A stretch of 64,000 nucleotides of DNA. It comes from Candidatus Omnitrophota bacterium. GTDB lineage: Bacteria > Omnitrophota > Gorgyraeia > Gygaellales > Profunditerraquicolaceae. The stretch spans positions 128,343 to 192,342 of the forward strand of contig JBAZTA010000004.1 in assembly GCA_041662125.1 (NCBI GenBank), read 5' to 3'. This document shows positions 1 to 43,865 of the stretch, in pieces; the stretch's first letter is position 1, and the number at the start of each line of letters is the position of its first letter. Under the pieces are notes generated by a model. It did no database searches. It was not told the origin of the DNA and saw only the letters and a program-made list of their open reading frames with translations. The translations under genes and the position numbers were made by a program.

Positions 1-1064
1 TCGATTCGGGCGCAGCGTATGTGGCTTCCTCAGACGATGAACAAGCGCAGAAACTCGTTAATAAAAAACAGGATGCTATTATTTTTAAGGTCACGCCTCA
101 GAAAATAAAGATCAATGACCTGATCAGGGGAGAGATCGAGTTTGACGCTGAAACGATCAAAGACCAGGTTTTGATCAAATCAGACGGCACGCCGACTTAT
201 AATTTCGCCTGTGTGGTTGATGACGCGGAAATGAAAATAACCCATGTCATCAGAGGCGATGACCATATTTCCAATACTCCCAAGCAAATACTGCTTTACC
301 GGGCGCTCGGATTTGCGCTGCCGGAATTCGCGCATCTGCCGTTAATATTATCAAAAGAAGGCGGCAGGCTTTCAAAGCGAAAAGGCGCGACTGCGATCTC
401 GGAATACCATGCAATGGGTTACCTTGCCGCGGCGCTGGATAATTATTTGCTGCTTTTGGGATGGTCTCCGGGAGGAAACCGCGAGATCGTCAGTATGGAT
501 GAAGCGATCAAGCTGTATGATCTAAAGAATATCAATAAAACCGCGGCGGTCCTTGACCTGGATAAGCTTGACTGGATGAATAACCAGTATCTAAAGAATG
601 AGGATCCAGAGAAGCTTACCGATGAAGTTATTCCTTCGTTAGTTGAGAAAAAATATATTGAAAAAGAGAATTTTGATAGAAATTATGTCGTTTCTTTGGT
701 AAAATTGTTTCAAGGCAGGCTTACCACGATCAGCGATTTTGCTGATTGGGCTGATTTCTTCTTTGTTCAAGACTTAGCGATTGACCCGGCGGCGCAGGAG
801 AAATTCTTAGCGAAAGACCTCTCAAAAGAATTCAGCCTTTTTATTAAAAGGCTTGAGAGTTTAGAGGTTTACGATATTGCCAATATTGAAGCCGCTTTCC
901 GCGAGATGGCAAAGGAACTGAATCTCGAAGCAAAAGTTTTGATTCATCCGATTAGAGTTGCCCTTACCGGAAAAACCATTGGCCCGGGCCTTTTTGAAGT
1001 TATCTATTATTTAGGTAAAGAGCGGACAAAAGCGCGGCTTGGTAAATTTATAAAAAAGGAGTAG
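1..1064 (+). CDS. gltX: Glutamyl-tRNA synthetase (GluRS), 5'-truncated by the window edge; C-terminal ~347 aa present
   Basis: The ORF is open to position 1. The translation contains class-I aaRS/GluRS hallmarks (HVIRGDDHISNTPKQILLYRALG, LSKRKGA KMSKS-like motif) and an anticodon-binding C-terminal domain. Confidence 0.93.
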   Translation, partial: DSGAAYVASSDDEQAQKLVNKKQDAIIFKVTPQKIKINDLIRGEIEFDAETIKDQVLIKSDGTPTYNFACVVDDAEMKITHVIRGDDHISNTPKQILLYRALGFALPEFAHLPLILSKEGGRLSKRKGATAISEYHAMGYLAAALDNYLLLLGWSPGGNREIVSMDEAIKLYDLKNINKTAAVLDLDKLDWMNNQYLKNEDPEKLTDEVIPSLVEKKYIEKENFDRNYVVSLVKLFQGRLTTISDFADWADFFFVQDLAIDPAAQEKFLAKDLSKEFSLFIKRLESLEVYDIANIEAAFREMAKELNLEAKVLIHPIRVALTGKTIGPGLFEVIYYLGKERTKARLGKFIKKE

Positions 1065-1066
1065 GG

Positions 1067-1246
1067 ATGAAAAAAAAGGGTATTTGCGTCGTTTTGGGCG
1101 TTTTTTACTGCCTGGTGTTGCTGAGCGGGTGTCATACGGTATGCAAGTCGACTAAGGGCGCGGTTGCAGGCGCGAAAGAAGGCGCAAAAGAAGATTGGAA
1201 AGCCACTCAGGAAGCAGACGTCTGGATGAAAAAGAATTTGTGGTAG
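1067..1246 (+). CDS. Small lipoprotein (59 aa), entericidin-like in size and composition
   Basis: ATG at 1067 overlaps the gltX stop. The N-terminal signal peptide ends in the lipobox LLSGC, followed by a short Gly/Ala/Lys-rich tail. It is below the ORF-track cutoff and was translated by hand. Confidence 0.4.
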   Translation: MKKKGICVVLGVFYCLVLLSGCHTVCKSTKGAVAGAKEGAKEDWKATQEADVWMKKNLW

Positions 1247-1614
1247 GGGTTTGAGATCCTGGAACTGACACGGATTATTCCTGTAAGCTATTATAAATGT
1301 TATACCTATGCAAGTTTTCTTCTGGTTGCATAGATTTCCTCGTATTATATCTACTTATATTAGAGTTTTATTTATTTTCATTATAACTGCACCATTTTTA
1401 GATTATATTCATTTTCACTGTTTCTTTCCTTCGGGCATAAGAATTTTGTTTAAATAATAGATTGGCTTTTTTGTTATGGTAGTTAAATGAGGTGTTCTTA
1501 GGCACTCCCATTTTTTCATTTGCAGATAAACTATCGTTTAATGCCTGAAAGCCTTGTTTTGTTTCCAGATGAGCATATAATATTATATATAATCATCGGT
1601 ATGGACAGAATGTT

Positions 1615-1655
1615 CCTACAAAAGAAGATGAATAAAGCTTTGCGAAACTCTCCAG
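1615..1655 (+). repeat. Partial copy of the island upstream module (AAGAAGATGAATAAAGC..GCGAAACTC) preceding ORF 1687
   Basis: Sequence identity to the 3' part of modules at 5001-5135 and 6131-6257. Confidence 0.6.
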
Positions 1656-1686
1656 AGAGCTGAAATAGTGAAGGAAAGAGTAAATT

Positions 1687-2538
1687 ATGAGATGTCCTTT
1701 AGCAAAGAGATGGATAAAAAGGCTATTTAGAGATATGTGTCGAAGTTTCTGTAAGCAAAATAAAATAGAGCGTGTTTATTGGATTGTTGTTTGTATCGCG
1801 ATAATAATATTTGGAATCAATATGGGGTTATTTTGGTTCTCGTTATTTATTAGTGTAGTGGTTATTTTGGGAGGAGCTCTCGCTACAAAAGATAATAAAA
1901 ATGTGGGTTTAATGGTAGCAACCCTTCTTTTTGCTATAGTGACATTCCAGAAACAAAACCAAAACTTTAGTAAGCAATTAGATATGCAATCACAAGCTCT
2001 AAAGAAGCAAATTGACAACTTTGAGCTGTCGAAGAAGAATAGCGAAATACAATATACTCCTGACCTTAGAGCGCTTGTAGAATGTAAAGAAATATATGCT
2101 GGCACTAGAGAGATTAATAAAGCTGGCAGAATGGATGATTCTATAGTAATACCCATAAAGATTTATAATAGAGCTTATGGATATGCCAAGGATGTTACTT
2201 TGGCTATGTGTTATAATCATGGGGGAGAAGATAAAATTCTTAAGATAGATGTTCCTTTTATGAAGGGTGGAGAAAGTTACCAGGTTAGCTTTGCTCCATC
2301 TGTTGACAACGGATTTCGCGAATTGTTTCTGAATAGCACGAAAACATTTAAAGTAAAAATAATACTAGATTGGAAAGATACGTCTGGCAAAAAATATAGG
2401 TCCGTTGAGAATTTTACTTTAACTCATGAAAAGCAGGGTTTAGACGCTTCAGAAAGCTTTATTTTTAAATCTTTAGGATTTTTTAGCAGTTTAGATAATG
2501 ATATCCAAACGATTAATAAGCAAGGCGATAACAGGTAA
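1687..2538 (+). CDS. Hypothetical membrane-anchored protein (283 aa; two N-terminal TM helices and a soluble C-terminal domain)
   Basis: Long ORF in the AT-rich island with a hydrophobic N-terminus; no recognisable catalytic motif. Confidence 0.5.
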   Translation: MRCPLAKRWIKRLFRDMCRSFCKQNKIERVYWIVVCIAIIIFGINMGLFWFSLFISVVVILGGALATKDNKNVGLMVATLLFAIVTFQKQNQNFSKQLDMQSQALKKQIDNFELSKKNSEIQYTPDLRALVECKEIYAGTREINKAGRMDDSIVIPIKIYNRAYGYAKDVTLAMCYNHGGEDKILKIDVPFMKGGESYQVSFAPSVDNGFRELFLNSTKTFKVKIILDWKDTSGKKYRSVENFTLTHEKQGLDASESFIFKSLGFFSSLDNDIQTINKQGDNR

Positions 2539-2610
2539 CAAGACGTTTTATATAACTATCTTAGGGTTAATGAGTTGCTAAATAAATATTTCGTTAGGGA
2601 GGGAAATTGT

Positions 2611-2665
2611 TTTGTAACTGTAGGATCTATGTGAAGATTAACAAATGGTCTAGAAAACTCTGAAG
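2611..2665 (+). repeat. Partial copy of the island upstream module (GAAATTGTTTTGTAACTGTA...TCTAGAAAACTCTGAAG) preceding ORF 2673
   Basis: Matches the central and 3' part of modules at 4771-4890, 5001-5135 and 6131-6257. Confidence 0.55.
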
Positions 2666-2672
2666 GGAAAAC

Positions 2673-3167
2673 ATGAAGAGAGTTGCCGTTTTATTGATAT
2701 TTATGGTATTAATTAGCGGGTGTGCGACTGGATATCATCAACAAGGTTTTACGGGTGGCTATACAGATATGAAATTGCAAGATGATATCTACAAGGTTGG
2801 ATTTAGAGGTAACGGTTATTGTCGTAGAGAGAGAGCGGATAATCTGGCTTTATTAAGGTGTGCTGAAGTCACTCTTAATAACGGTTATCAGTATTTTATA
2901 ATCATTGATGAAAAATCTTTAACACAGGCTAGTGCTTATACGGCTCCAGTGACAGCAAATACTCATGGAACAGTTAATACATATGGAAATCAAGCCATTT
3001 ATTCGGGCACAACTTTATATTCTGGTGGGCAAACCTATATTTATCATAAACCTTCAACAACAAATACAATAAAATGTTTTAAGGATAAACCAGAAAATAT
3101 TCCTGTTATTGTTTATGATGCAGATCAGATAAGGAACAATATTAAGGCTCAATACCATATAAAATAG
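2673..3167 (+). CDS. Hypothetical lipoprotein (164 aa)
   Basis: Signal peptide with lipobox LISGC; Tyr/Gly/Thr-rich mature part. Confidence 0.55.
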   Translation: MKRVAVLLIFMVLISGCATGYHQQGFTGGYTDMKLQDDIYKVGFRGNGYCRRERADNLALLRCAEVTLNNGYQYFIIIDEKSLTQASAYTAPVTANTHGTVNTYGNQAIYSGTTLYSGGQTYIYHKPSTTNTIKCFKDKPENIPVIVYDADQIRNNIKAQYHIK

Positions 3168-3267
3168 CTTCATCTGTATAAAAAGATAAATAGGGGACGT
3201 TCCCCCAGGGTGCGCCCTGTTGATTGGTAATGTGCTCGTAGGGTATGGGTTATGGTAAGGTTGTAAT

Positions 3268-3320
3268 TTAAAAAGATTGCTTCACCCGCCACTAAAGCGT
3301 TGGCGGGTTCGCAATGACAC
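3268..3320 (+). repeat. REP-like intergenic hairpin element, copy 1 (AAAAGATTGCTTC - CCGCCAC..GTTGGCGG stem-loop - GTTCGCAATGACAC)
   Basis: Inverted repeat CCGCCA/TGGCGG; the same flanking boxes recur at 3855-3934 and 3964-4028. Confidence 0.6.
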
Positions 3321-3470
3321 GTATTCGGTTAACAGTGGGAAACAGGTTAACAAGACGTTTTATCTAACCGTATAATTCACAATAAATTCTGAAACAATTC
3401 TTTTGATTGTTGGGGTTCAGGGGAAACGGTACTTTATTATCGATGCTTTAGGAGATAGGAGATTTTAACT

Positions 3471-3833
3471 ATGAGGAACGTGAAAGGATTTACCATGCTT
3501 CTTGGATGGATCGCTGTTGTATATTTTCCCATAATATGTTTATTAAGTATGGTAGGGGGCGCGGGAGGCACCCCGTTTAATATAATAATTTCTATTATCA
3601 TCCTTGAGTGCTCGGGTATCGGGCTTTTTATAACCGGGATTGGCATCATATTATTAAGAAAGTGGGCCTGGTGGTCTACCATGGTACTTGCTCCAGTATT
3701 TACACTTTCCGCGCTATATAGCTTATATGAGGGCATTGGGCTTGGACAATTTTTATTTTTTTATTCCTTCCCAAGCTTGCTTTTTATCCTTCTTTTATTT
3801 CCCGAAATTGAGGAGCAGTTTGTGAGGGAATAA
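3471..3833 (+). CDS. Small polytopic membrane protein (120 aa, about 4 TM helices)
   Basis: Hydrophobic segments throughout; RBS-like GGAGATAGGAG upstream. Confidence 0.45.
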   Translation: MRNVKGFTMLLGWIAVVYFPIICLLSMVGGAGGTPFNIIISIIILECSGIGLFITGIGIILLRKWAWWSTMVLAPVFTLSALYSLYEGIGLGQFLFFYSFPSLLFILLLFPEIEEQFVRE

Positions 3834-3854
3834 TTCAGGGTATACATCATTTAA

Positions 3855-3934
3855 CTTAAAAAGCAGATTCCCGCATAAACAGTAAGTAAACAAGGCCCGC
3901 CACAAAGCGTTGGCGGGCAAGCGGGAATGACAAC
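3855..3934 (+). repeat. REP-like hairpin element, copy 2 (GCCCGCCACAAAGCGTTGGCGGGC stem-loop + GGGAATGACAAC)
   Basis: Near-identical stem-loop to 3283-3305 with the shared GCGTTGGCGGG core. Confidence 0.6.
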
Positions 3935-3963
3935 TCTCAGGTTTTTGCCTTTTTGCTTTTTAC

Positions 3964-4028
3964 TTTAAAAGATTGCTTCCTGCCTACCGGCAGGCAGGCA
4001 CCCCTGCGGGGTTCGCAATGACACGGGG
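3964..4028 (+). repeat. REP-like hairpin element, copy 3 (TTTAAAAGATTGCTTC - CCTGCCTACCGGCAGGCAGG hairpin - GGTTCGCAATGACACG)
   Basis: Shares both flanking boxes with copy 1 but has a different GC-rich palindromic core. Confidence 0.55.
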
Positions 4029-4107
4029 GGAGGCTCCCGAAAGGCGAAGGGATTTTATAGAAGATGAATAAAACTTAATTAATAATTGCAGAACAAGAGG
4101 AGGCGAT

Positions 4108-4572
4108 ATGGCTAAAATAGCTAAATTAACAGTAATGGTTGCTATGTTTGTTTTGGTTTGTATTTATTGCAGTGTATCCGCCGAAACCATCACGAACGAA
4201 TTGCAGGAAGGTAGATACGTGTTAATTATGATGAACGGAAGAGCGATCGTTAATAATCGTGTCCCGGGAATGATATTAGATAGTTATAAAGGTATTGTTT
4301 GGACTTGTCAGAATCTGCAAGATGGCAAGCCTTTATGGGTTAAAACAGACCTTGGTCAAAACGGCGACAAGCAAATGACAAGAAAAAGATACATTGCCAA
4401 GATGCTTGAATGGCAAGATGCAGACTTAAGGATGCCCGCTGTTGTTTTAGATACCGATGATGGGATGGTTTGGAACTGTCCTAATATAGTTGATGGAAAA
4501 GCAACTTGGATTCAAAAAGACCTAAATGTAAATTTTCAAGAAGAGGTAAAAAAAGATGATAAGAAAAACTGA
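4108..4572 (+). CDS. Secreted hypothetical protein (154 aa) with an internal tandem duplication
   Basis: N-terminal signal peptide. Two homologous ~45-aa halves (IVWTCQNLQDGKPLWVKTDLGQNG and MVWNCPNIVDGKATWIQKDLNVNF), each with a conserved Cys. RBS AGGAGG. Confidence 0.5.
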   Translation: MAKIAKLTVMVAMFVLVCIYCSVSAETITNELQEGRYVLIMMNGRAIVNNRVPGMILDSYKGIVWTCQNLQDGKPLWVKTDLGQNGDKQMTRKRYIAKMLEWQDADLRMPAVVLDTDDGMVWNCPNIVDGKATWIQKDLNVNFQEEVKKDDKKN

Positions 4573-4770
4573 TTTGTTTTATTTAATAATGCTATTCTCA
4601 ATATCTATTCTGAACATGAGTTGCGCTTCATCTAATAAAAACTTTAGAGATGCTCCAGGTGTTTTAAAAACAGATACTCGTTCTACTTCTGGAGTTAATA
4701 AGTAAATAGCCTAATTAAATTAGGTGACAGCCACTTTGGGGACAGGCATTTGAGTGGGTTTTGTATCCTA

Positions 4771-4890
4771 GACGCTGTATGTAATTATCAGGGGTTGTTC
4801 GGGTTAAAAGCAATTAATTTGCTGAAGTAAGAAATAATTGTTTTGTAAGTCCAAGAACTATAGGGAGATGGATATAGCGTCTAGAAACTA
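4771..4890 (+). repeat. Island upstream module, copy E1 (~120 nt: ACGCTGTATGTAATTA...GAAATAATTGTTTTGTAA...)
   Basis: About 75-80% identical to 5001-5135 and 6131-6257; sits in tandem with E2 in the 600-nt spacer before ORF 5180. Confidence 0.65.
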
Positions 4891-5000
4891 CTTTGATGAA
4901 GCTAGTAAAATTACTGAAATCTTTGGTATATACTTAGAACATATATCTGGAAAACTCGCTTTCGTGTTTGGTGTACATATCCCGAAAGAAACTTTAGGAA

Positions 5001-5135
5001 TATCGTAAACGCTGTATGTAATTAATAGCGATTATTCGATTTATAAAACAATTACTTTGTTATAATAAAACTAAGAGTTTTGTAACTGTAATATCTATAA
5101 GAAGATGAATAAAGCGACTGCGAAATCTCAGAATT
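5001..5135 (+). repeat. Island upstream module, copy E2 (~135 nt), ending ~45 nt before the start of ORF 5180
   Basis: Collinear with copy F (6131-6257). Contains the mini-ORF ATGAATAAAGCGACTGCGAAATCTCAGAATTTTTAG, which is also present in copy A. Confidence 0.7.
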
Positions 5136-5179
5136 TTTAGAAAATAATAAATAGGCGTGGTTCCTGGTCTATAATTACT

Positions 5180-6112
5180 TTGAGTGGAGGGTCGATGAGC
5201 AAGGGAAAATGGGGGGAAAGTTTCTTAAAATCAGGTTTGCCGCTGGAGTATTTGACACTAATGACTTTTAGATCGCTTGGCTGGCATTGTGATACACATA
5301 TCGAATATGAAAGAAAAAATCGAGAGGGTAATAGTTCTTGGTTTGAGTTGGATTTGATGGCTTCTTATCACAAGAGAAATCAAGATACCGAATTGGCTTT
5401 CTTAGTTGAATGCAAATATCACGATTTAAGTAGGTTTTGGTTTTTTTTACCACATATAAAGTCAAGTTGGCATTTTGATGATAGAGTTCTTAACGTCGGC
5501 CCGTTACAAACATTAGCTAAGCCAAGAAACTCAACTTTTTTAGAGTTTGCTCCAACATCAAGTGGGGGTATAGTTGTGGCAGAAAATGGTTCAAAGCAAG
5601 ATAATGCAGTGTGTACGGCAATTCAGCAGCTTACAAATAGTTTCGTTCCAATCTGTATGTCCACGATGTTTAATTATAATATAGATTTTTACAATGTTAG
5701 AGAGGGGCACGACTTTCAGATATATTCTACGGCACTCATTCCCATGGTTGTTACAAATGCCAAAATTTACAGATTAAAATCCACAGTTACAGATATTGAT
5801 ATAATACGGAAAGCAGCGTCACCAAAAGAAATAGCTGATGAAATCCCGTGGACCTGGTGCTATTTTGATCTACCGATGTCTCAGCTTAACAGCAATTATG
5901 TTTCAATTAATGAGCATGAGAAAAAGGAGAAAGAGTTAATTTGTAGGTATGCTCAGATTAAAAATAGCTTATCAAGGTTTGAGAATCGTCCTAATTGGGT
6001 GCTAATTACAAGCATAATAAATTTACAAAATGTCATTGAGACTATTTCAAACAATTTTATGAAGTTGCCCACAATTGCAATTAATAGTGTTCTTAGAAAT
6101 CATAGACGTTGA
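5180..6112 (+). CDS. Hypothetical protein (310 aa) with an N-terminal PD-(D/E)xK (restriction-endonuclease-like) fold signature
   Basis: The motif ...SWFELDLMASY...(20 aa)...LAFLVECKYHD gives a D ... E-x-K arrangement with spacing typical of PD-(D/E)xK nucleases. The C-terminal ~200 aa are unassigned. Start could alternatively be the ATG at 5195, which has an RBS GGAGGG. Confidence 0.5.
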   Translation: MSGGSMSKGKWGESFLKSGLPLEYLTLMTFRSLGWHCDTHIEYERKNREGNSSWFELDLMASYHKRNQDTELAFLVECKYHDLSRFWFFLPHIKSSWHFDDRVLNVGPLQTLAKPRNSTFLEFAPTSSGGIVVAENGSKQDNAVCTAIQQLTNSFVPICMSTMFNYNIDFYNVREGHDFQIYSTALIPMVVTNAKIYRLKSTVTDIDIIRKAASPKEIADEIPWTWCYFDLPMSQLNSNYVSINEHEKKEKELICRYAQIKNSLSRFENRPNWVLITSIINLQNVIETISNNFMKLPTIAINSVLRNHRR

Positions 6113-6130
6113 AAACCCGGACGTTGAGGA

Positions 6131-6257
6131 TATCGTAGACGTTGCACGTAATTAACAGTGACTATTTGATTTATGAAACAATTACTTTGGTACGGTCAGA
6201 AATAATTGTTTTGTAACTGTATGAATTTTAGGAGATAAATAAAGCGTTTAGGAAACT
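6131..6257 (+). repeat. Island upstream module, copy F (~127 nt), immediately preceding ORF 6258
   Basis: Collinear with E2; the conserved AATAAAGCG...GAAACT box lies just before the ATG. Confidence 0.7.
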
Positions 6258-7661
6258 ATGAAAGCATCTGATTTAAAAGATTGGATAGAAATAATACAAA
6301 GAATAAAAAAGATATGGTCAAGTCCTGCAGGGCTGTTATTGTTGAATATCGTTATTTTATCTGCTTATTATGGCCCCCTAAAATGTTTAATCGGTGATTT
6401 TACTGACTTAATCATCCCAAAATACTCATTGCTCTTTATAAAGACTGCTCCTTTTGTTATTGTTATTTTATTGATAATTACATGGTTGTTAAATAGACGA
6501 TTGCCAAAATTTTCTAATAAAGAACTTGGAATTCTATTCTGTCCATTACTTGAAGAGAAAACAAGCGATGTTGTTGATAGATTAAAAAGAAGTTTACATA
6601 GGGAAATTAAGGAATTTGGTTTAGGCTTAAAGTTAAAAACTTTACCAGCTAATTATGAAATTAATGATACTCCTCGTTCATATCAGATAAGAGAAAAAAC
6701 TAATGCGTATCTTGTAATTTGGGGTAATTTTTGTAAGGGAAACATTAACGAACATAAATCAATAGGGTTTCCTAGGTTATCGTTTACTTTCAAGCAGCCA
6801 CCCATTTTAGTAAATTTAGTGCCACATTTTGGGGTAGATATTGGTCTTGGTATGTTTGGGAAGCATTGGTTTGTTCAGGAGAACAACGATTTTTGGGATA
6901 TTGAAAGTCTATCTAATAATATCACAGAAGCTTCCTTAAATATTCTAGGTAAAATACTTTTACTGGCCGAAGATTTTGATAGGGCAATTGTTATTCTTAC
7001 TCATCTTCTAAATAGCTACTTACTGCCCAAAATAGATTCTAATAAGCCTTTTTTGAAAGAATTTATATTTTCAGTTAAGAGAGCCTTGGGGTATTCTTAT
7101 CGTGGAAAGTCATTAAAAATTTATAGAGAAAACATATTCAATAAAATCGGAGATAAAGAACTGCCTTCTGAAGCAATTAAAAAATGCATGGCTTTAATAA
7201 AATCAGCGATAACGTTAGACTCTAAGAATGCTGACCATTATTTAAGCTCTGGTATCTTAAACTTTCTGTTAGGGAATATGAAAGATGCTATTGATGATAT
7301 AGCTAAAGCGAGAACGTATAATTTTAGAGAGGATGGTGTGTCGCATTTGTCTGGTGGTTTTCTTTATTTTTTCAATGGTAATATGAAAAAAGGCTTAGAA
7401 CAATATCGCCGAGCGTTTAAAAAGGAAATTCCCCCTGTTTCGCTAGTTGAGGTCCTTGTATTCATAAATAAGATTCTTGATAAGTATCCTGAAAAAATAC
7501 AATTGCATTTGGCCCTAGGTATAATTAATAAAGAAAGATATGACCAAAAAATTGCTAAACAGGAACTGAGGTTGTTTATAGAGAAGGCAAAGGCAGCTAA
7601 TGTTTTTAATGAATATATTCCAATTGTAGAAGTGATGCTTCGAGAGCTATCCCCTAATTAA
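6258..7661 (+). CDS. Hypothetical 2-TM membrane protein with a cytoplasmic TPR-like C-terminal region (467 aa)
   Basis: Two hydrophobic helices in the first 80 aa; helical-repeat-like sequence in the C-terminal half; no catalytic motif recognised. Confidence 0.5.
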   Translation: MKASDLKDWIEIIQRIKKIWSSPAGLLLLNIVILSAYYGPLKCLIGDFTDLIIPKYSLLFIKTAPFVIVILLIITWLLNRRLPKFSNKELGILFCPLLEEKTSDVVDRLKRSLHREIKEFGLGLKLKTLPANYEINDTPRSYQIREKTNAYLVIWGNFCKGNINEHKSIGFPRLSFTFKQPPILVNLVPHFGVDIGLGMFGKHWFVQENNDFWDIESLSNNITEASLNILGKILLLAEDFDRAIVILTHLLNSYLLPKIDSNKPFLKEFIFSVKRALGYSYRGKSLKIYRENIFNKIGDKELPSEAIKKCMALIKSAITLDSKNADHYLSSGILNFLLGNMKDAIDDIAKARTYNFREDGVSHLSGGFLYFFNGNMKKGLEQYRRAFKKEIPPVSLVEVLVFINKILDKYPEKIQLHLALGIINKERYDQKIAKQELRLFIEKAKAANVFNEYIPIVEVMLRELSPN

Positions 7662-7688
7662 AAGCTCTGATTCTTTAAGGGTAAAGTT

Positions 7689-7830
7689 TTAGAATTTTAA
7701 TAACTCGATAGGTTTAACTTTTAGAGCTTTGGCAAGTCTTTCAATAGTATTAATTTCTGAAGCGGGAAGAGTTTTTTCCCAGACTTTCTTAATAATACCC
7801 TGCAACCCCGGGGGTAAGTTACAATAGAAG
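7689..7830 (-). pseudogene. Truncated XRE-family HTH remnant (C-terminal helix region only)
   Basis: The minus-strand translation ...GLQGIIKKVWEKTLPASEINTIERLAKALKVKPIELLKF* resembles the C-terminal half of Cro/CI-type HTH_3 domains (L.KLAKAL.V..DELL). No intact N-terminal helix-turn-helix or start codon is present. Confidence 0.3.
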
Positions 7831-7990
7831 TAGATTGATATGTTTTTAGGGGATTGCTTTCAAATCTACCGTCTTCTAAAGTAAATTAGAGGTGGTTCTA
7901 AGAGCTACCTATCCGAATTTAAGAGCTATTAATTTCGCTCTATACCTTAGTAATCCCGGGGACACATCACTTAATTGTCACTGTTTTGGT

Positions 7991-8043
7991 TTAAGACCCG
8001 GTCTTGGCTGGTATTAAAAACTGCTTGTTAAGACCGGGTCTTA
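7991..8043. repeat. Two copies of a 13-15-bp perfect palindrome, TTAAGACCCGGTCTT and TTAAGACCGGGTCTTA
   Basis: The self-complementary GC-rich motif AAGACCSGGTCTT occurs twice within 40 nt; the same motif recurs at 52671-52710. Confidence 0.6.
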
Positions 8044-8148
8044 TTGCTTAGGAAATCATGCTTTACAGCACCCAGTAAATCAGGTATAATTAATTTTCGA
8101 TCCCACTATCACCGCTGCTTATTTACGTCTCAAAGTGTCATAGATTAT

Positions 8149-8220
8149 TGCCCTGTCGTCTAATTGGTAGGACTTCAGATTCTGGATCTGACTATCATGG
8201 TTCGATTCCATGCGGGGCAG
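8149..8220 (+). tRNA. tRNA-Gln (anticodon CUG)
   Basis: Hand-folded cloverleaf: acceptor TGCCCTG/CGGGGCA (U1-A72 as in bacterial tRNA-Gln), D-stem GTCT/GGAC, anticodon stem TCAGA/TCTGA with loop TTCTGGA, T-arm CATGG-TTCGATT-CCATG. Confidence 0.8.
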
Positions 8221-8242
8221 TTCTGCTTCGCCCATCAATAAG

Positions 8243-8340
8243 CAAAGCTGCGGTGGGGCTTCGCAGGAACAAGTTCTGTTCGTCGTTCAACATACAAAGC
8301 TGCGGTGGGGCTTCGCAGGAAGTGGGGGCTTCGCTTGGAA
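8243..8340 (+). repeat. tRNA-linked repeat: two direct copies of CAAAGCTGCGGTGGGGCTTCGCAGGAA plus a degenerate third
   Basis: Copies at 8243-8269 and 8295-8321. Each can form a CTGCG...CGCAG stem around the GTGGGGCTT core and is homologous to the elements after tRNA-Glu and at 43866. Confidence 0.6.
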
Positions 8341-8367
8341 GCGTTTTCTTGTTACCCTGTTTTACTA

Positions 8368-8396
8368 TTGACACCAGGCAAATAAAAAGTTATGCT
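8368..8396 (+). promoter_or_regulatory. Consensus-like sigma70 promoter for the S8 protease gene (TTGACA - 17 nt - TATGCT)
   Basis: -35 TTGACA at 8368-8373, a 17-nt spacer and -10 TATGCT at 8391-8396, about 105 nt upstream of the ATG at 8504. Confidence 0.5.
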
Positions 8397-8503
8397 TTGA
8401 TAGCACAATCCAGTCAATTGTGCGGCGTTTTAAGTTTAGTTAAAATTGGAGGTATGCGAGAAGTGTGTGCATACCTTTTTTTATTTTAAGGAGGATACAA
8501 ATT

Positions 8504-11500
8504 ATGGAGAATATAAAGAAGGCGGTATTATTAGCCGGTATTACGGCTGCGTGTTTTTTGTGTGCCCCCGCATTCGCTTTAGTTGACAATAGCCAAGCGA
8601 TAATCGAGCAGCAAACTGTTTCATCACAAGACATACAGCAACCATCCCAGCCCCAACAGCCTCAAGCCCCTGCGTTCGTCCCGGGCGAGCTTATCGTAAA
8701 GATCAAAGACGGCAAAACCATGGATGAACTCAGTGAGCTAAACACTAAATATGATGTTACTTCCACAGAAGGGATTTTCCAAAGCCCGGGTAGTCCCGAG
8801 GAAATGCTTAAGAGCCTTCAACAGAAATTAGCCGATCTTGGTTCTCAACACGACAGCTGGTATTGGCAGATGGATAAAGATTCTAAAGAATATAAGGACT
8901 ATGTCGCTAAGATAGAAGCGCAAAAAGAAACACTAAAAAGCCAAATCAGCGCCGAACAGGCACTTGTCGATCATTTAAACCAGAGACAATCCAGGGCTGA
9001 TAATACAGTAACTACTCCCAACTTAACAAACACCTATGTTTTTAAAACCAATAGCTCAATCAATATTGTCGCAATAGCAGAAGATTACTCTTCGCATCCC
9101 GCGGTAGAATACGCTGAGCCGAATTATGTGTGTAAAGTAGAGCAATCTGCTCCTATTCTTGGGCCTCCTCCTATTCCTGGCTGGCCATATGTCCTGCCTA
9201 ATGATTCGTATGTAGACCCTAACCATACTAATACCTGGACTAAAGGCGCCTGGGGACAGGCCTACGAAGACATGTGGGGCCTCAAGAAGATCCAGGCAGA
9301 TAAAGCTTGGCGATTATCGTTAGGTGAAGGGGTAATTGTGGCTGTAATTGATACCGGCGTTGACTATACCCATGAAGATATATCTGCTAATATCTGGATA
9401 AACACAAGAGAAATACCCGGCAATGGCATAGATGACGAAGGTAACGGTTATATGGATGATATAAGGGGCTGGGATTTTGTTAATGATAGTAACGACCCTA
9501 AGGATGGTTATGGCCATGGCACTCACTGCGCAGGTACTATAGCTGCCATAGGCAATAATAAAATTGGTATTATCGGGGTATCTCCCAAAGCAAAAATTAT
9601 GCCGGTAAAAGGGTTGGATGATTTTGGGTTCGGCAGTGACGCTGCATTAGCCAAAGGTATTTATTATGCCGCCAATAACGGCGCGGATATTCTAAGCAAC
9701 TCCTGGGGTGGGTCGGGAAGCAGCCAGTTAATAACAGATGCTGTTAATTATGCTTATGCTCAAGGATGCGCCGTGGTAGCATCGGCGGGTAATTCAAGCG
9801 CCGATGTTAAATATTTCTCCCCGGCTAATATTGATAAGGTTATAGCAGTCGCAGCTACCGGCCAAAATGATAAATTATGCGTTTTTTCTAACTTCGGTAA
9901 TAAAATTGATGTGACTGCGCCTGGAGGCGATGATATTCCGACGTATATTTACTCCAATTTCAATAATGTCCTTTCATTATTAGCCCCTAATTCATATCTG
10001 GCAAAAAATTATTCCGCGGATATCGTCGGGTATAAATACCTGAAATTAGCCGGCACATCCATGGCCTGCCCGCATGTTTCGGGCTTGGCGGCCCTGCTTA
10101 TAGCCAAATACCCCGCGGATACAAATAAACAGATCAGGGGCAGGATCATGGAGACCGCTGATGTATTGTCCCAGGAGCCTTTGTATTCACAGGGGCTCTT
10201 GGGGTCGGGAAGGATCAATTCTTATCGCGCCTTAAGCGAACCGTTTAAACCATACTTTAAATTTAAGGAACTGTTTCTTAAAGAGCTCACCGGAGACGGC
10301 GACCAGATACCGGAATCCAGGGAAAGAATAAAGCTCGTCATTAAACTGGAATCTATAGGCAAGGATACAAGTTCGGCGAAGTGCTCGATAAGTACAGACA
10401 GCCAGTATATTTCCTGCATAAACATTCCGGTTTCCTCGTTCTATAGGTCTCAAGACGGCACAATGGATAATTCAAACAGCCCATTTGTATTTACGATCGG
10501 CAAAGTAGAATACCAATCGCCGGTGAATATCAAGCTGACAATTAATGCCGGCGGATGTGTCCAGATGTTGAATCTAAAGATAAATTTGGGCATCAGGCAA
10601 CTGCCTATTGATTACAATACCTATAAGATTGGACGGTATTCCTTGTATAAGGATAAAATAACCTGGGATCGTACTACTGTGGATAGTCATGCCGGTTATG
10701 TGTATAGCGGAGAAATCTATCTGTATGACCTGAAGAGTAACCAGGTTAAACAAATATCCGAGAATGACGGCCGCATAAAAGCTTGGCCGGCAATGTATGA
10801 AAACAAAATCGTCTGTATGGACAAGAGCTCGCCCTATTCGAATTGGAACGTCTTCCTGTATGACCTTACCGCAAAAACAGCTACGTTCATAACCCAGGAT
10901 TCATTTAATCACCGGGATCCTTATATTTACAAAAATAAGATCGTATGGTCTGATGACCGTAACGGCAATAATGATATTTACCTGTATGATATCGATAAAA
11001 AGCAGGAGAGAAGGATCACAACGAATCCCGCCGGCCAGATCACTCCGAAAATTTACGGAAATAAGATCGCCTGGATAGATTTTCGCAATGGCCCGTATGA
11101 CTGGTATCGGTATGATATTTGTGTCTATGATTTGGATAAGAACGAAGAGAAGATGATCCCCAGGGGAGGGAGCAATGTCCTTTGGCCGATAGATATTTTC
11201 GGTAATAAGGTCGTATGGGCGGATGATAATAATATTTATCTTTACGACTTAGATAAGAATGAACAGAAACTTATCAGCTCCCGTAACTATCAGTATTATA
11301 TTACTTCTTTGCGGATCTACGGCAATAAAATAATCTGGGATGACAGCGTTTCCGGGAGTTCGCCCCAAGTATACCTTTATGATCTAAATACCAACCAAAA
11401 AAAGATGGTTACTAAAGATCAGTATGTGTTTTCACCGGTTGTTTATGCCAGGAATATTACCTGGCTTAACTGGAGCGATGATGTTTATAAGCCGCATATG

Positions 11501-11809
11501 TATATTACCGAAATTCCCGATATCACGCCTCCCATCGGCTCAATAAGAATAAATAACGGCGCTCTTTACACAAGGTCTCCCGTCGTCATGCTTAATTTAT
11601 ATGCCCAAGATGATGAAAGCGGCATGGGAAATGGCGCGCAGATGCAACTTTCTAATAACGGAACTCAATGGTCAGCTCCTGAACCATACATAGCAAGCAA
11701 ATTGTGGTGTTTGACGCCGGGGACCGGGCTAAAGATCGTATACGTTCGATTTAAAGATGTGGCGGGGAATTGGTCATGTTCCTATTTGGCATATATAAAG
11801 GTATATTAG
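8504..11809 (+). CDS. Secreted multidomain subtilisin-like serine protease (S8 family) with C-terminal beta-propeller repeats and an Ig-like domain (1101 aa)
   Basis: Signal peptide. Catalytic triad motifs VAVIDTGVD (Asp), GHGTHCAGTIAA (His) and GTSMACPHVSG (Ser). At least six repeats of type IYLYDLxxxxxxxIT/KIVWxD (PD40/TolB-like propeller blades). Terminal domain with INNGALYTRSPVVMLNL...NGTQWS (bacterial Ig-like/SbsA-like). RBS AAGGAGG before the ATG at 8504; the ORF-track start at 8465 is likely too early. Confidence 0.9.
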   Translation: MENIKKAVLLAGITAACFLCAPAFALVDNSQAIIEQQTVSSQDIQQPSQPQQPQAPAFVPGELIVKIKDGKTMDELSELNTKYDVTSTEGIFQSPGSPEEMLKSLQQKLADLGSQHDSWYWQMDKDSKEYKDYVAKIEAQKETLKSQISAEQALVDHLNQRQSRADNTVTTPNLTNTYVFKTNSSINIVAIAEDYSSHPAVEYAEPNYVCKVEQSAPILGPPPIPGWPYVLPNDSYVDPNHTNTWTKGAWGQAYEDMWGLKKIQADKAWRLSLGEGVIVAVIDTGVDYTHEDISANIWINTREIPGNGIDDEGNGYMDDIRGWDFVNDSNDPKDGYGHGTHCAGTIAAIGNNKIGIIGVSPKAKIMPVKGLDDFGFGSDAALAKGIYYAANNGADILSNSWGGSGSSQLITDAVNYAYAQGCAVVASAGNSSADVKYFSPANIDKVIAVAATGQNDKLCVFSNFGNKIDVTAPGGDDIPTYIYSNFNNVLSLLAPNSYLAKNYSADIVGYKYLKLAGTSMACPHVSGLAALLIAKYPADTNKQIRGRIMETADVLSQEPLYSQGLLGSGRINSYRALSEPFKPYFKFKELFLKELTGDGDQIPESRERIKLVIKLESIGKDTSSAKCSISTDSQYISCINIPVSSFYRSQDGTMDNSNSPFVFTIGKVEYQSPVNIKLTINAGGCVQMLNLKINLGIRQLPIDYNTYKIGRYSLYKDKITWDRTTVDSHAGYVYSGEIYLYDLKSNQVKQISENDGRIKAWPAMYENKIVCMDKSSPYSNWNVFLYDLTAKTATFITQDSFNHRDPYIYKNKIVWSDDRNGNNDIYLYDIDKKQERRITTNPAGQITPKIYGNKIAWIDFRNGPYDWYRYDICVYDLDKNEEKMIPRGGSNVLWPIDIFGNKVVWADDNNIYLYDLDKNEQKLISSRNYQYYITSLRIYGNKIIWDDSVSGSSPQVYLYDLNTNQKKMVTKDQYVFSPVVYARNITWLNWSDDVYKPHMYITEIPDITPPIGSIRINNGALYTRSPVVMLNLYAQDDESGMGNGAQMQLSNNGTQWSAPEPYIASKLWCLTPGTGLKIVYVRFKDVAGNWSCSYLAYIKVY

Positions 11810-11927
11810 TTATCGCCACTTAAATCTCTTCCTACCAATATTATAGAGATATATAGCTTTTCAAAGCCTAATTTCTTGATATTTGCTTAATTTCCTATAT
11901 AATGAGCTTGCTAGTCAAGGAGAAATT

Positions 11928-12437
11928 ATGCGTAAAATCATTTTAATGATTCTTTTCTTGTCTTTTTCATCGGCTTGTTTTGCCCAGCCTCAAGAACCTG
12001 CTTCCTTAACCAAAGGCAACGCTATTATTATGCGTATTTATGAAGAGATTCAAAAACTCAAAGGCAGCTATCACAAATTAGTTTCTTTCGAGCAGAATGC
12101 TGTCAAAGAGGGAGATTATGAAAGCAGCGTTCGACTTGTTTCAAGCAGGTCTGTCCAGGATAAGAAAACTTTAGCCATTAAATATGGGGAGCCGTGGAAA
12201 AAAGATCCTTACGCAAGAAATGATGGTGCTGTTTATGTTGAGGTTTATTTTACTTCAAACCCTTTTACTAAAGAATCAGCGTTGGTGCAGCAAACCAAGG
12301 ATTTCCAGCCAAAAGAAATATATGTGAGTGGCTCAGGTGTTTATTTGGAGTATTATATTGTTACTGATGAAGAACTGGGCGCTGTCTTGGAGGGTATTAT
12401 CAGGGGCGCGGTGGGAAAAATCGCAGATTTTAAATAA
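11928..12437 (+). CDS. Secreted hypothetical protein (169 aa)
   Basis: ATG at 11928 with RBS AAGGAGAAATT; signal peptide MRKIILMILFLSFSSACFA. Confidence 0.55.
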   Translation: MRKIILMILFLSFSSACFAQPQEPASLTKGNAIIMRIYEEIQKLKGSYHKLVSFEQNAVKEGDYESSVRLVSSRSVQDKKTLAIKYGEPWKKDPYARNDGAVYVEVYFTSNPFTKESALVQQTKDFQPKEIYVSGSGVYLEYYIVTDEELGAVLEGIIRGAVGKIADFK

Positions 12438-12479
12438 TCATGGCATACTTAAATATTCAATGAAATAAGAAAGGTTTTT

Positions 12480-12806
12480 ATGGTAAAAAAGAATTGTTGG
12501 GAAGTTAAAAAATGCGGAAGAGAGCCCGGTGGTGCCAAAGTGAAAGAATTGGGTGTCTGTCCTGCGGCGATTGAAGGCAGCGTCAACGGCGTTAATTGCG
12601 GCAAAAATGCCGGCAGGTGCTGTTGGGCAGTGGCGGGGACTTTTTGTGACGATAAAGTTTCTGGTTCTTTTGCTTCCAAAATAACATCGTGTGTTAATTG
12701 CGATTTCTTTAAAACGGTTGTTTTAGAAGAAGGGCAAGACTTAAAAACGACAAAGGATATTTTAGAAAAATTGTATAGCCAAAAGAAGAGTAACAAAAAA
12801 GATTGA
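12480..12806 (+). CDS. Small cysteine-rich protein with two CW motifs (two-CW-like domain), 108 aa
   Basis: Motifs NCWEVKKCG and RCCWAVAGTFC plus additional CxxC (CVNC). No signal peptide. Likely metal- or redox-binding. Confidence 0.5.
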   Translation: MVKKNCWEVKKCGREPGGAKVKELGVCPAAIEGSVNGVNCGKNAGRCCWAVAGTFCDDKVSGSFASKITSCVNCDFFKTVVLEEGQDLKTTKDILEKLYSQKKSNKKD

Positions 12807-12841
12807 TTCTTGATTTCTAAAAGGATATAATAACAACACTT

Positions 12842-12922
12842 GCGCGGGTGGTGGAATGGCAGACACGCAAGCATGAGGGGCTTGTGCCGAAAGGTATGGG
12901 GGTTCAACTCCCCCCCTGCGCA
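12842..12922 (+). tRNA. tRNA-Leu (anticodon GAG), type II with long variable arm
   Basis: Collinear with E. coli tRNA-Leu: acceptor GCGCGGG/CCTGCGC, anticodon stem CAAGC/GCTTG with loop ATGAGGG, variable arm CCGAAAGG, T-arm GGGGG-TTCAACT-CCCCC. Confidence 0.85.
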
Positions 12923-12934
12923 TAAAATATTCAG

Positions 12935-12980
12935 AAGGCTTACCAAGTCTTGTTTTAAGGCGGGGTAAGCCTTTTTTCTT
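12935..12980 (+). terminator. Rho-independent terminator after tRNA-Leu
   Basis: Stem AAGGCTTACC / GGTAAGCCTT followed by TTTTTTCTT. Confidence 0.7.
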
Positions 12981-12990
12981 CCTTTACTTT

Positions 12991-13217
12991 TAGCACCGTC
13001 TGCTCAGCTCATCTTGTACCGTCTGCAAACCTAATCTTGCACCTGTACCTGCACCTAGAGCACCTTGCCAGTAGTATCTTTAAATCTACCTTAAAGATCC
13101 CGTTTTCAAACGATTGTTGTATCAGAGGAATGGATAAGTATATCTCTTTGATACTTAGGGGACAGGTGCAATCTTGGAAAAAGGGCAGGTGCCCGATTAA
13201 CTTTGCACCTGGTGCTA
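12991..13217 (+). mobile_element. Non-autonomous miniature derivative (MITE-like, ~227 bp) of the IS200/IS605-like element at 17997-18665; lacks the transposase
   Basis: Left end TAGCACCGTCTGC...CTTGCACCTGT and right end CTTAGGGGACAGGTGCAATCTTGGAAAAAGGGCAGGTGCCCGATTAACTTTGCACCTGGTGCTA are about 90% identical to the ends of the full element. It has the same terminal inverted repeat TAGCACCG/CGGTGCTA. The internal segment corresponds to the tnpA 5'UTR. Confidence 0.7.
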
Positions 13218-13467
13218 TTGGTTATAGCTTTCTATTAGAAAACGCTTTCAAAATCCCGCAATATAGCATTGAAAAAAGCAATTTCTTAAGGCATAATTAT
13301 CATACTATATAATTAGTTTGCACAGTCCGGGTCAAGTTGTGCAAACGTCTCTAAAATTATACGATGGAGGTACTGGAGCGATCATTTCGTTCTTAGGTGC
13401 CTCTTTTTTGGTTTATGGGACATACGTAATGCAGATAAAATACAATTTCAATAAAAAGGAGAGATAC

Positions 13468-17925: not shown

Positions 17926-17952
17926 AAAAGTGCAGGATCTTGTTTAAAAAGG

Positions 17953-17990
17953 AAATCCCCGGTTCATAATACGAGCCGGGGATTTTTTTA
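17953..17990 (+). terminator. Rho-independent terminator after the giant gene
   Basis: AAATCCCCGGTTCATAATACGAGCCGGGGATTTTTTTATTT. Confidence 0.7.
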
Positions 17991-17996
17991 TTTCGT

Positions 17997-18665
17997 TAGC
18001 ACCGTCTGCAAACCTAATCTCGCACCTGTCCTCTACATAAGCTTTCTGTTATTTTAAAAAAATCTTGTTAGAAAATCGGTTTTCAATCGTCTATTGTATT
18101 AGGAGGTGATATTTATGGTTAATGTCAAAAGATTGCTATTAGATGGCTGCTGTTACCATATAATAACCAGGGGAAACCAAAAGCAAAAGGTTTTCAGATG
18201 TGATGAGGATAATTTGGAATATTTAAAGCTCTTAAAACGCTTTAAGCGAAAATACAAATTCCATTTATATGCGTATTGCCTTATGCCAAATCATGTTCAC
18301 CTGGTCGGAGAAATAAACGACACTCCTTTGATATCCAACTTCATGCATGATTTAAGCAGGACCTATACACTCTATTTTAACAGTAAATACGAACTAGTTG
18401 GCCATCTCTGGCAAGGCAGATTCAAAAGTAAGATCATTTGTAAAGATAGATATTTATTTGATTGTCTTAGATATATTGAATACAATCCTGTGAGAGCAAA
18501 CTTGGCACAGAACGTCTCAGAATACAAGTGGAGTAGTTATCAAGGAAGGGTATTAGACGAACAAAATGGGATAATTGATGAAATGCCACCTTTCTAAAAC
18601 TCTTAGGGGACAGGTGTAATCTTAGAAAAAGGGCAGGTGCCCGATTAGCTTTGCACCCGGTGCTA
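17997..18665 (+). mobile_element. IS200/IS605-family (RAYT-like) insertion element, ~670 bp, with 8-bp terminal inverted repeats TAGCACCG/CGGTGCTA
   Basis: Contains tnpA (18115-18597) and subterminal complementary boxes GCACCTGTCC / GGACAGGTG. The right end abuts the stop codon of the REC-GGDEF gene. Confidence 0.75.
18115..18597 (+). CDS. tnpA: IS200/IS605-family Y1 (HUH) transposase TnpA / REP-associated tyrosine transposase-like
   Basis: HUH motif PNHVHLV, conserved YxxxW/Q region (GHLWQGRF) and typical ~160-aa length. RBS AGGAGG 8 nt before the ATG at 18115. Confidence 0.85.
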   Translation: MVNVKRLLLDGCCYHIITRGNQKQKVFRCDEDNLEYLKLLKRFKRKYKFHLYAYCLMPNHVHLVGEINDTPLISNFMHDLSRTYTLYFNSKYELVGHLWQGRFKSKIICKDRYLFDCLRYIEYNPVRANLAQNVSEYKWSSYQGRVLDEQNGIIDEMPPF

Positions 18666-37986: not shown

Positions 37987-38231
37987 TTTTCACTTTTTTA
38001 TTTTAGGTATTTCGTATTGAAAGATTATTCGTGGCTTAACTGGGGGCTCTTCAACGCCATATAATCAGCCAAAGCGCAAAATACAACCACGTCTTTCCCG
38101 GATAATTTTAGCCAAGATTAATTTAAAGTATATACCAATCACTTTGAGATGGGAAGGGAAATCTTATTGCAAGAAAACCGTATTTGTAATTACCTTGACA
38201 CCGTTGCCGTGCGTAAAGTAAAATATAGTTT

Positions 38232-41577: not shown

Positions 41578-41836
41578 AAAACCTCTATGTTTTTTGGCAA
41601 CAACTCTGTCTTAAGCTTTTTCAGATTGGGGTACCGTTAATGCCTTACACCTATCCGTGCTCATAGCGCGAAGAAATAATACTATAAACACATTAACAAT
41701 AAGAATAATGAGTAAACAAATAAAAAATATGCCCATGCCATTTACTTAAATCTAAACAATCTCTTGCTAAAGAATTGCTAGAACCAAAAAATCCGTATGC
41801 ACCCATTACTGCTATAATTATAAATATTCTTTATTA

Positions 41837-42946: not shown

Positions 42947-43191
42947 CCTTGTGAAAGTAAAACAGCGCAGCGCCTAAGAAGTTTTACCAAAAGAAGCGAT
43001 AAGCAAAAGAGAAGATGCTTCCCGGGATTTTCGCATTATAAAAACAGTTTCAGTATAGCACTAGCCTTGAAAAATGCCAGGGAACTTAGCGGGAGATACT
43101 ATAATAAACTCTAATTGGCTTGACTATCGGGATATGTGCAGTAAAATAAAATTGGTGTTTGGTGTAAAATAAAGCTTAAAAGGAGGGTGCC

Positions 43192-43677: not shown

Positions 43678-43865
43678 GAAAGGCTTCGATAATTATCTTT
43701 TTAGTTTTTTTGTCCGCCTTGTTTTTCTCCGCTTATTACTCAAAAACGATTGCTTACTATTCCAAAAATCACCGAGGGATTCTATCTCTAATCTAGAAAA
43801 TTTCTTGATATGAGAAGGTATTACGGATATAATACACTTTGTAAATAAGAGATAACTTGCCGTAG

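Follow-up and report, generated by a model that had tools for sequence, protein, structure and literature searches.

A hypervariable accessory-gene islet with palindromic repeats at its gene junctions between gltX and tRNA-Gln in Candidatus Omnitrophota

Among systems that stockpile promoterless single genes at a fixed place in the chromosome and shuffle them there, only integrons are, to our knowledge, well understood. Their attC sites are built from R″ (RYYYAAC), R′ (GTTRRRY) and L″/L′ boxes with an unpaired spacer, and the cassette boundary lies at the G/TT of R′; the integrase gene intI and the attI site are needed for a complete integron, not for a cassette array without a linked integrase (cluster of attC sites lacking integrase, CALIN). 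The reach of integrons is set by models of attC and IntI whose training sequences come from Proteobacteria. Here we analyze a 64,000-nt stretch of DNA (the window) from Candidatus Omnitrophota, a phylum that we know from metagenomes only, in which a family of palindromic repeats of ~125 nt (the modules) occupies the gene junctions of a low-GC island. The region is a hypervariable accessory-gene islet of the Candidatus Omnitrophota chromosome, located between a gltX-lipoprotein operon and a tRNA-Gln gene. The array has the layout of an integron and turns over from strain to strain, yet it fails both the attC and the IntI tests. If cassette-type capture arose more than once, or uses unrecognized sites or enzymes, surveys that rely on IntegronFinder would overlook them; alternatively, a pile-up of palindromic repeats at hot spots may mimic cassette arrays, which would call for caution in reading such architectures.

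The likeness to integron arrays, including CALINs and sedentary chromosomal integrons with their repeats of ~120 nt in Vibrio cholerae, lies in same-strand, mostly single-ORF (open reading frame) unrelated units with a palindrome of ~125 nt after each, in repeats that are mutually related, in atypical composition, in different content at the same position in close relatives, and in one class of elements here (type 1, defined below) that starts with TAAC-AA. The island departs from them in giving no attC-model match, in the AAC/GTT invariants missing from the window copies and in its continuous stem; no intI or attI lies beside the array or elsewhere in the sequence examined, at least one cargo gene comes with an upstream region of its own, and the breaks in homology coincide with the 5′ edge of the element, not with a 3′ G/TT. 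A second comparison is offered by sites of the dif type, which span ~28 bp with two 11-bp dyad arms around a 6-bp center. The dif modules of Acinetobacter plasmids (XerC/XerD pdif) likewise have short, conserved, alternating (inverted) sites that bound small gene modules, with no linked recombinase gene and an enzyme presumed to act in trans. Here, by contrast, inspection of the box sequences by eye found no 11-6-11 dyad layout, the sites sit within a 125-nt palindrome, and the locus is chromosomal.

A palindromic repeat family confined to a variable locus

The module is present in the intergenic junctions of the island in four full and three partial or diverged copies (Table 1), which share 63-81% pairwise identity within the window. 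It is an imperfect, AT-rich palindrome whose 5′ box is the inverted partner of its 3′ box. The 5′ box occurs as type 1, TAACAAGACGTTTTATNTAAC (modules B and F), or type 2, ATCNTAGACGCTGTATGTAATTA (C, D and E), and the 3′ box (...ATAAAGCGTCTAGAAAC) is an imperfect complement of both; between the module ends lies an inner hairpin, AAACAATTA / TAATTGTTT. The 5′ part begins at or just past the stop codon of the upstream ORF, and the distance from the module end to the next start codon is 0-65 nt, a wider range than the 30-60 nt of a preliminary description of this DNA. Taken as a whole, the family measures ~116-136 nt, with TAAC...GTTA termini and inverted end boxes of 21 nt. Across six family members the stem is paired in 82.6% of cells, against 40-45% when the partner columns are slid, and nine stem pairs are altered on both sides, including the swaps that separate the two box types.

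Three box patterns gave 4, 4 and 3 matches in the window, against 0.14, 0.47 and 0.00 expected from shuffles, all of them within 1623-6255. The covariance model derived from the four full copies scores these at 105-133 bits (match spans 2536-2662, 4762-4893, 4999-5130 and 6129-6260) and has no other match on the + strand of the 64 kb; with box patterns and covariance model combined, the other ~57 kb of the window hold no module copy. Unrelated control DNA, 575 kb in all, yielded no match to a broader module model at E<0.1. The preliminary description had placed the modules correctly, but only B, C, D and E are full copies, A, F and G being partial or diverged; the alignment, covariance model and search that it proposed retrieved the four full copies and traced the family into metagenome contigs as well.

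Confinement extends beyond the window. Among 243 kb of sequence (the window and the comparison loci L081, L083-L087 and L109-L119), ten 5′ boxes occur, all in gene sense and all in the islands of three close relatives, which lie between gltX and tRNA-Gln/S8. These ten boxes fall in ~17 kb of island, against none in the ~80 kb examined outside the islands of the three related genomes.

The content of the islands is replaced in full between relatives. The comparison genomes L081 (a 370-kb contig) and L083 (a shorter one) encode GltX proteins 93% identical to that of the window, and their shared flanks have 78-96% nucleotide identity to it. L081 keeps gltX, the lipoprotein gene, the S8 protease gene and tRNA-Gln; L083 keeps gltX, the lipoprotein gene, tRNA-Gln and the 11919-12682 region. 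In the left anchor, an identity of 85-87% runs up to 1248 with L081 and up to 1348 with L083; homology to L083 then breaks off, picking up again at 8050, with short non-coding matches only in between. No island ORF is common to the window and either relative: the L081 island encodes a HEAT-like protein, a 110-aa ORF and a helix-turn-helix (HTH)-plus-M78 peptidase, and that of L083 encodes PEP-CTERM, AIPR, sigma70_r4 and other proteins. What the islands do share is non-coding (5′ boxes, a 60-nt segment and an 80-nt stretch), and the shared boxes are up to 99% identical, against 85-90% for the flanking genes. The part of module F at 3348-3427 is 99% identical to L083 6739-6818, and the ORFs to either side of it differ. 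At ~80% GltX identity, relatives lack the island, and one of them runs from gltX to tRNA-Gln almost directly. The comparison of related genomes suggested in the preliminary description therefore supports in outline its reading of the locus as a cassette array or recombination hot spot, with kept flanks and wholly different genes between them.

In one genome at ~80% GltX identity, L087, gltX is separated from a GGDEF response regulator gene by only ~1 kb, which holds tRNA-Gln and tRNA-Leu, and a comparison over 8465-18600 found no counterpart there of the island, the S8 protease gene, a 1535-aa ORF or a gene resembling a REP-associated tyrosine transposase (RAYT; REP, repetitive extragenic palindromic). 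The tRNA-Gln gene follows the S8 protease gene in L081 and precedes it in the window. This collapse and this shift indicate that the wider region was rearranged within the lineage.

The family recurs in metagenome contigs, of which 21 loci were retrieved in one scan with the type-1 box. Several of them contain complete palindromes whose inverted ends measure 21 nt, namely L095/L107 (127-136 nt) and L099/L106 (116 nt); a model derived from the window copies only gives L099 a score of 47.8 bits and L095/L107 one of 41.9 bits. The box lies 1-130 nt past a same-strand stop codon in at least nine independent loci. In L107, five consecutive + strand ORFs are each followed by one palindrome of 123-136 nt, one of which belongs to the family of the window and four to a second, 123-nt family, and the next 5 kb beyond the array contain no palindromes.

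The second L107 repeat, with ends GTGTCARAACTC...GAGTTCTGACAC, occupies 866-988, 1630-1752, 2847-2969 and 4657-4779, each copy following one ORF. Other scans yielded no further members. In genome contigs, the core pattern GTTTTGTAACTGTA-N8-14-RAGAT gave 79 single matches in unrelated phyla, which we attribute to chance because none of them is recognized by the module model at E<0.1. Viral sequences had no match to the type-1 box and two identical matches to the type-2 box in a GC-rich, coding-like context without a module, also taken as chance, and BLASTN with modules C and D found no match in plasmids and phages.

Junction evidence and competing explanations

Indels and homology breaks fall at the edges of the boxes. 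Between two direct boxes, L083 carries an extra unit of 592 nt, composed of a box and an ORF, where the window has 71 nt; L090 has 1.38 kb more than L098, with three ORFs, and the end of this extra segment coincides exactly with a box. In L098, L102 and the window, short partial copies of TAACAAG are stacked just 5′ of boxes. For 14 of 17 pairs of distinct instances, only 0-2 nt of homology lie on the 5′ side of TAAC, against 24-89 nt on its 3′ side. The breaks coincide with the TAAC edge of the 5′ box, which reads GTTA on the opposite strand, and not with the 3′ end of the module. Between the nuclease cargo and locus L109, a nucleotide identity of 85% is limited to 5132-6096, a span that starts where module D ends and stops just short of module E; the match takes in ~60 nt upstream of the gene, and L109 has no module.

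We tentatively favor an interpretation in which single-gene units are gained and lost by recombination at lineage-specific palindromic junction elements, with the enzyme encoded elsewhere, and we hold it to be a real possibility that stops somewhat short of probable. The boxes would be the substrate of recombination, and a dedicated recombinase would presumably act on them in trans. Two boxes in direct orientation would recombine and so excise or insert a segment the size of a gene, an exchange that can be likened to the attC-by-attC exchange of an integron, but with other sites and an enzyme encoded elsewhere. It is a further and unlikely proposition that the palindromes are the sites of an undescribed integron-like capture system of Omnitrophota and neighboring uncultivated lineages, served by a non-IntI recombinase away from the array; single-gene cassettes, defence-type nucleases included, would then swap at non-attC sites with TAACAAGACG...CGTCTTGTTA termini.

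Several observations weigh against recombination at the boxes. Any repeated element should show a sharp 5′ edge of homology at its terminus, and the 14 of 17 pairs therefore define a terminus without proving exchange. Neither indel is a clean site-to-site excision, the window side having a REP insertion and 25 nt. The island contains no recombinase or transposase, and the search for an associated recombinase envisaged in the preliminary description produced no IntI1-like match in the window or in 108 loci. Two cargo genes have close homologues elsewhere that no module accompanies (the lipoprotein in L116-L119, the nuclease in L109-L112). Boxes are present at only four of seven junctions in L083 and about one in four in L081, and hence are not obligatory at every junction. 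The pairing of 5′ and 3′ halves prefers neither the same module nor the same cassette: a 3′ box that lies upstream of an ORF showed no pattern of better pairing with the 5′ box downstream of that ORF, the case of a crossover in mid-module, or with the 5′ box of its own module. The sampling amounts to a few dozen kb per genome. Finally, the island holds three unrelated small repeat families, which a general build-up of repeats in a tolerant region would account for equally well.

Recombination at the boxes has a serious rival, which we nevertheless consider somewhat unlikely: the modules would be passive, non-autonomous repeats resembling miniature inverted-repeat transposable elements (MITEs), or the enterobacterial repetitive intergenic consensus (ERIC) and Correia elements, that pile up, REP-like hairpins alongside, in the intergenic spacers of a horizontally acquired, insertion-tolerant island whose turnover is ordinary flux and does not stem from the modules. 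Their build is that of a MITE (116-136 nt, non-coding and AT-rich, with sharply defined ends and terminal inverted repeats of 21 nt), copies truncated to solo halves are frequent, the spacers also house three other small repeat families, a RAYT-like gene lies at 18106-18597, some junctions in L081 and L083 have no box, and cargo homologues are found without modules. ERIC elements, or intergenic repeat units (IRUs; ~127 bp), and the Correia elements of Neisseria are likewise AT-rich, non-coding and of this size, have terminal inverted repeats of ~20-26 nt, reside in transcribed intergenic spacers just past stop codons and are often truncated. They are, however, scattered chromosome-wide in both orientations with TA duplications, whereas here all copies seen keep to one variable locus and one orientation, no duplication is evident and indels coincide with element edges. 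The restriction of the ten 5′ boxes to island sequence and their single orientation relative to genes are at odds with passive accumulation, as is the contrast between window copies that are old, judged by their mutual identity, and one copy that is almost unchanged across genomes; the indels, too, adjoin box edges. No target-site duplication is evident at complete copies: no direct repeat flanks C, B, L107 or L099, and a TA duplication would look the same as the TAAC...GTTA termini. In the fetched loci, no transposase with matching ends was found.

The companion repeats of the island are of other kinds. Three GC-rich, REP-like hairpins share GATTGCTTC...TTCGCAATGACA and in the window occur only inside the island, and related copies lie in the islands of L081 (~11700-11780 and 15000-15030) and L083 (~3020-3090 and 9320-9350). 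The hairpins are possible substrates of the RAYT-like gene, a 163-aa ORF on the + strand (NF047646, 78.8 bits, just under the cutoff of 80; Pfam Y1_Tnp, E = 1e-16) that sits in a small low-GC pocket (0.34) and is the only transposase-like gene found. As in genomes with REP sequences, or bacterial interspersed mosaic elements (BIMEs), and their RAYTs, the island is a mosaic of small extragenic repeats with a RAYT-like gene 10 kb away; REPs, though, are GC-rich hairpins of 20-40 nt, a description that fits 3277-3320 and 3895-4024 and not the 125-nt AT-rich modules. A small repeat, GGTGACAGYCAC..GGGACAGGCATTT, recurs in variable regions (window 4723-4750; L081 15097, 18613 and 19172; L083 7647 and 9368), and the motif TTCCGGGGACACAT..TAATT is found at ~7955 in the window, ~14968 in L081 and ~6845 in L083.

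We regard it as quite improbable that the modules are cis-acting expression signals, be it a hairpin terminator or insulator, an RNase-processing site, or a promoter or operator with a dedicated factor. Such a role would agree with their fixed orientation relative to genes, with the position of the 5′ box at or within 130 nt past a same-strand stop codon in at least nine independent loci, with the inner motif TAYAAAACAATT conserved after the box in many loci, and with the compensatory changes in the stem. The F-type box followed by ATAATTC also yields TTAACA-18-TATAAT, which matches at 11 of 12 positions; most box copies, however, have no -10 element, and with 30 promoter-like sites for 28.7 expected there is no enrichment. 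Hence the shared mobile promoter or leader proposed in the preliminary description was not borne out: a good sigma-70-like match exists in the F-type copy only, and the cargo gene at 5195-6112 has its own upstream region of ~60 nt, conserved in a module-free homologue. The MNKA mini-ORF noted in the box is not conserved either, being present in A (1629-1664) and D (5106-5141), two of seven copies; B and E have no ATG at that position, and the ATG of C opens a 47-codon ORF. Folding gives a similar picture. Clearly stable folds are limited to C, L107 and L099, while B, D and E (z = +0.15, -1.07 and -0.51 against shuffles) fold like shuffled sequence. The sense strand folds more stably than the antisense strand in five of six copies, an advantage rejected as a signal because shuffled sense strands fold equally well, the gap being due to a G+U-rich composition. 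The hairpin is not followed by a T-tract, and no module matches an Rfam family at the gathering threshold in the 64 kb, where only three tRNAs and one c-di-GMP-I riboswitch were reported. Were the element purely regulatory, it should be found at other genes too, and there is none in 57 kb of the window.

The explanation that fares worst, and that we consider highly doubtful, is that the island is a true integron cassette array whose integrase is unlinked, with divergent, AT-rich attCs and an IntI elsewhere in the genome. Unidirectional single-ORF units followed by imperfect palindromes of ~125 nt, here and in L107, reproduce the layout of a cassette array; type-1 elements begin with nnnTAAC-AA like real attCs and complete copies end in GTTA, all real attCs examined having a TAAC 5′ end and a GTTA 3′ end; content differs between strains (L081 and L083 against the window) at a fixed position; and a homologue of the nuclease cargo resides in L110, where an attC covariance model has gene-sense intergenic matches. 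Yet none of the five 3′ boxes of the window has GTTA at the R′ position, three of five 5′ boxes have no AAC, and the stem is continuous, without an unpaired central spacer. The attC model recovers the held-out aadA16 and aac(6′)-29b attCs at 64.8 and 60.7 bits; in window 1-9000 with filters off, its best match reaches 9.5 bits (E ~1) and is not at a module, and L083, L107 and L099 give no match, although the model was trained on seven class 1 integron attCs from plasmids, GC-rich and from mobile integrons only, and very divergent attCs could escape it. A tblastn search with IntI1 (the probe being 100% identical to annotated intI1) returned nothing better than E = 6 in the window or the 108 loci, and a Pfam scan of twenty window ORFs revealed no recombinase, other long ORFs having been checked with the IntI1 probe only. 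The preliminary description had been unable to fit the island to the integron family, and both tests now agree with it. A hand-written attC detector (regular expression plus complementarity) was also negative on the island; its result was discarded in favor of the covariance model because it recovered only one of six real attCs.

Locus L110 may itself be a true integron cassette array. This 12-kb metagenome contig has 17 same-strand ORFs, including TIR, SduA_C, GIY-YIG and the nuclease-cargo homologue, and gene-sense intergenic attC-model matches at 128-195, 1011-1042 and 5716-5795 (E = 0.001-0.02), one of them with perfect ATCTAAC...GTTAGAT ends.

Composition, cargo and neighboring features

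The features of the island and its anchors are listed in Table 1. Composition drops where the preliminary description placed an AT-rich island: the GC content of 1250-7700 is the lowest among all 6,451-nt windows of the 64 kb. The contrast is milder than had been estimated by eye, at 0.346 rather than ~0.30 in the island and ~0.42 rather than ~0.45 in the flanks; the remaining window is at 0.419. GC content at third codon positions is 0.20-0.42 in island ORFs and 0.41-0.48 in flanking genes. Up to the tRNA-Gln(CTG) gene at 8148-8221 the island contains seven to eight ORFs, not six, and all plausible ones are on the + strand, as described. The window opens within gltX, and its GltX fragment has 100% identity to a protein from a Candidatus Omnitrophota metagenome-assembled genome in NCBI. 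An exact-sequence look-up of the 59-aa anchor lipoprotein found one further contig (564 nt) besides the source.

Table 1. Anchors, modules, companion repeats and cargo of the variable island (positions in the window; nt, nucleotides; aa, amino acids)
Feature	Position	Strand	Evidence or remarks
Left anchor: 3′ part of gltX (21-1064) and 59-aa lipoprotein gene (1067-1246)	21-1246	+	Nucleotide identity to relatives
Variable low-GC island	1350-8049	+	GC 0.348 vs 0.419 elsewhere
Module A, partial	1560-1652	+	3′ box 1623-1648; 5′ half degenerate
ORF of 283 aa, membrane-anchored	1687-2538	+	No family
Module B, full	2536-2662	+	104.8 bits; type-1 5′ box TAACAAGACGTTTTATATAAC; stop TAA of preceding ORF is the first three bases of the box
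ORF of 164 aa, CC0125/CC1285-family lipoprotein	2673-3167	+	NF047637, 93 bits vs cutoff 40
Non-coding segment	3217-3276	+	93-100% identical to L083 6086-6146 (there directly 5′ of a box)
GC-rich REP-like hairpin (...TTCGCAATGACA)	3277-3320	+	Inserted between the shared segment and module F
Module F, diverged	3348-3468	+	Type-1 5′ box; holds TTAACA-18-TATAAT
ORF of 120 aa, polytopic membrane protein	3471-3833	+	
Two more GC-rich REP-like hairpins (3895-3935, 3966-4024)	3895-4024	+	
Module G, remnant	4058-4077	+	3′ box only (at 4059)
Two overlapping ORFs of 154 aa and 49 aa	4108-4705	+	Signal peptide in the 154-aa ORF
Repeat element of a different family	4699-4765	+	GGTGACAG...GGGACAGGCATT
Module C, full	4765-4890	+	132.6 bits; type-2 box; best palindrome of the window: 13-bp outer stem, fold z = -4.8
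ORF of 47 codons	4868-5008	+	Start in module C, stop in module D; possibly no gene ('empty' spacer)
Module D, full	5002-5133	+	126.8 bits; type-2 box
Cargo unit: PD-(D/E)XK nuclease-fold gene (ATG 5195) with its own upstream region of ~60 nt	5132-6112	+	
Module E, full	6132-6257	+	130.3 bits; type-2 box; adjoins next start codon
ORF of 467 aa	6258-7661	+	N-terminal membrane segments; TPR-like repeats (sub-threshold)
Remnant of 38 codons, Cro/C1-type HTH gene	7689-7805	-	PF13443, E = 0.0099, below cutoff
Right anchor with tRNA-Gln(CTG) (8148-8221)	8050-8221	+	Promoter-like TTTACA-17-TATAAT at 8062-8090

The cargo looks like typical accessory and defence genes, with a restriction-endonuclease fold, lipoproteins, membrane proteins and TPR proteins. 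It had been described as a set of orphans, which holds for most ORFs: searches of Pfam, NCBIfam and PADLOC gave no family for ORFs other than 2673-3167 and 5195-6112, and PADLOC had no match for any cargo protein. The exceptions are the CC0125-family lipoprotein, with 73 homologues, and the putative nuclease, with 188 homologues from several phyla and no Pfam domain. Residues D53, E72 and K74 of the putative nuclease are invariant among its homologues, one of which (L109) adjoins type I restriction-modification genes and a ubiquitin-like (E2/ThiF) cluster, and another (L110) SduA_C and TIR genes. These contexts place an uncharacterized PD-(D/E)XK family among defence-island and cassette cargo.

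Elsewhere in the window, a second, milder low-GC stretch (0.32-0.40) at ~38000-44000, with no module copies, encodes a PMT_2 glycosyltransferase, an asparagine-synthase-like protein, a GDSL-lipase and a SnoaL-like protein. The c-di-GMP-I riboswitch is located at 54849-54986 on the + strand (37.3 bits against a gathering score of 35). Directly 3′ of tRNA-Gln, at 8227-8321, lie two tandem 43-nt copies, 86% identical, with a period of 52 nt; in L083, the 3′ end of tRNA-Gln and ~55 nt are duplicated (9766-9840 and 9940-10010), as at the ends of integrated elements.

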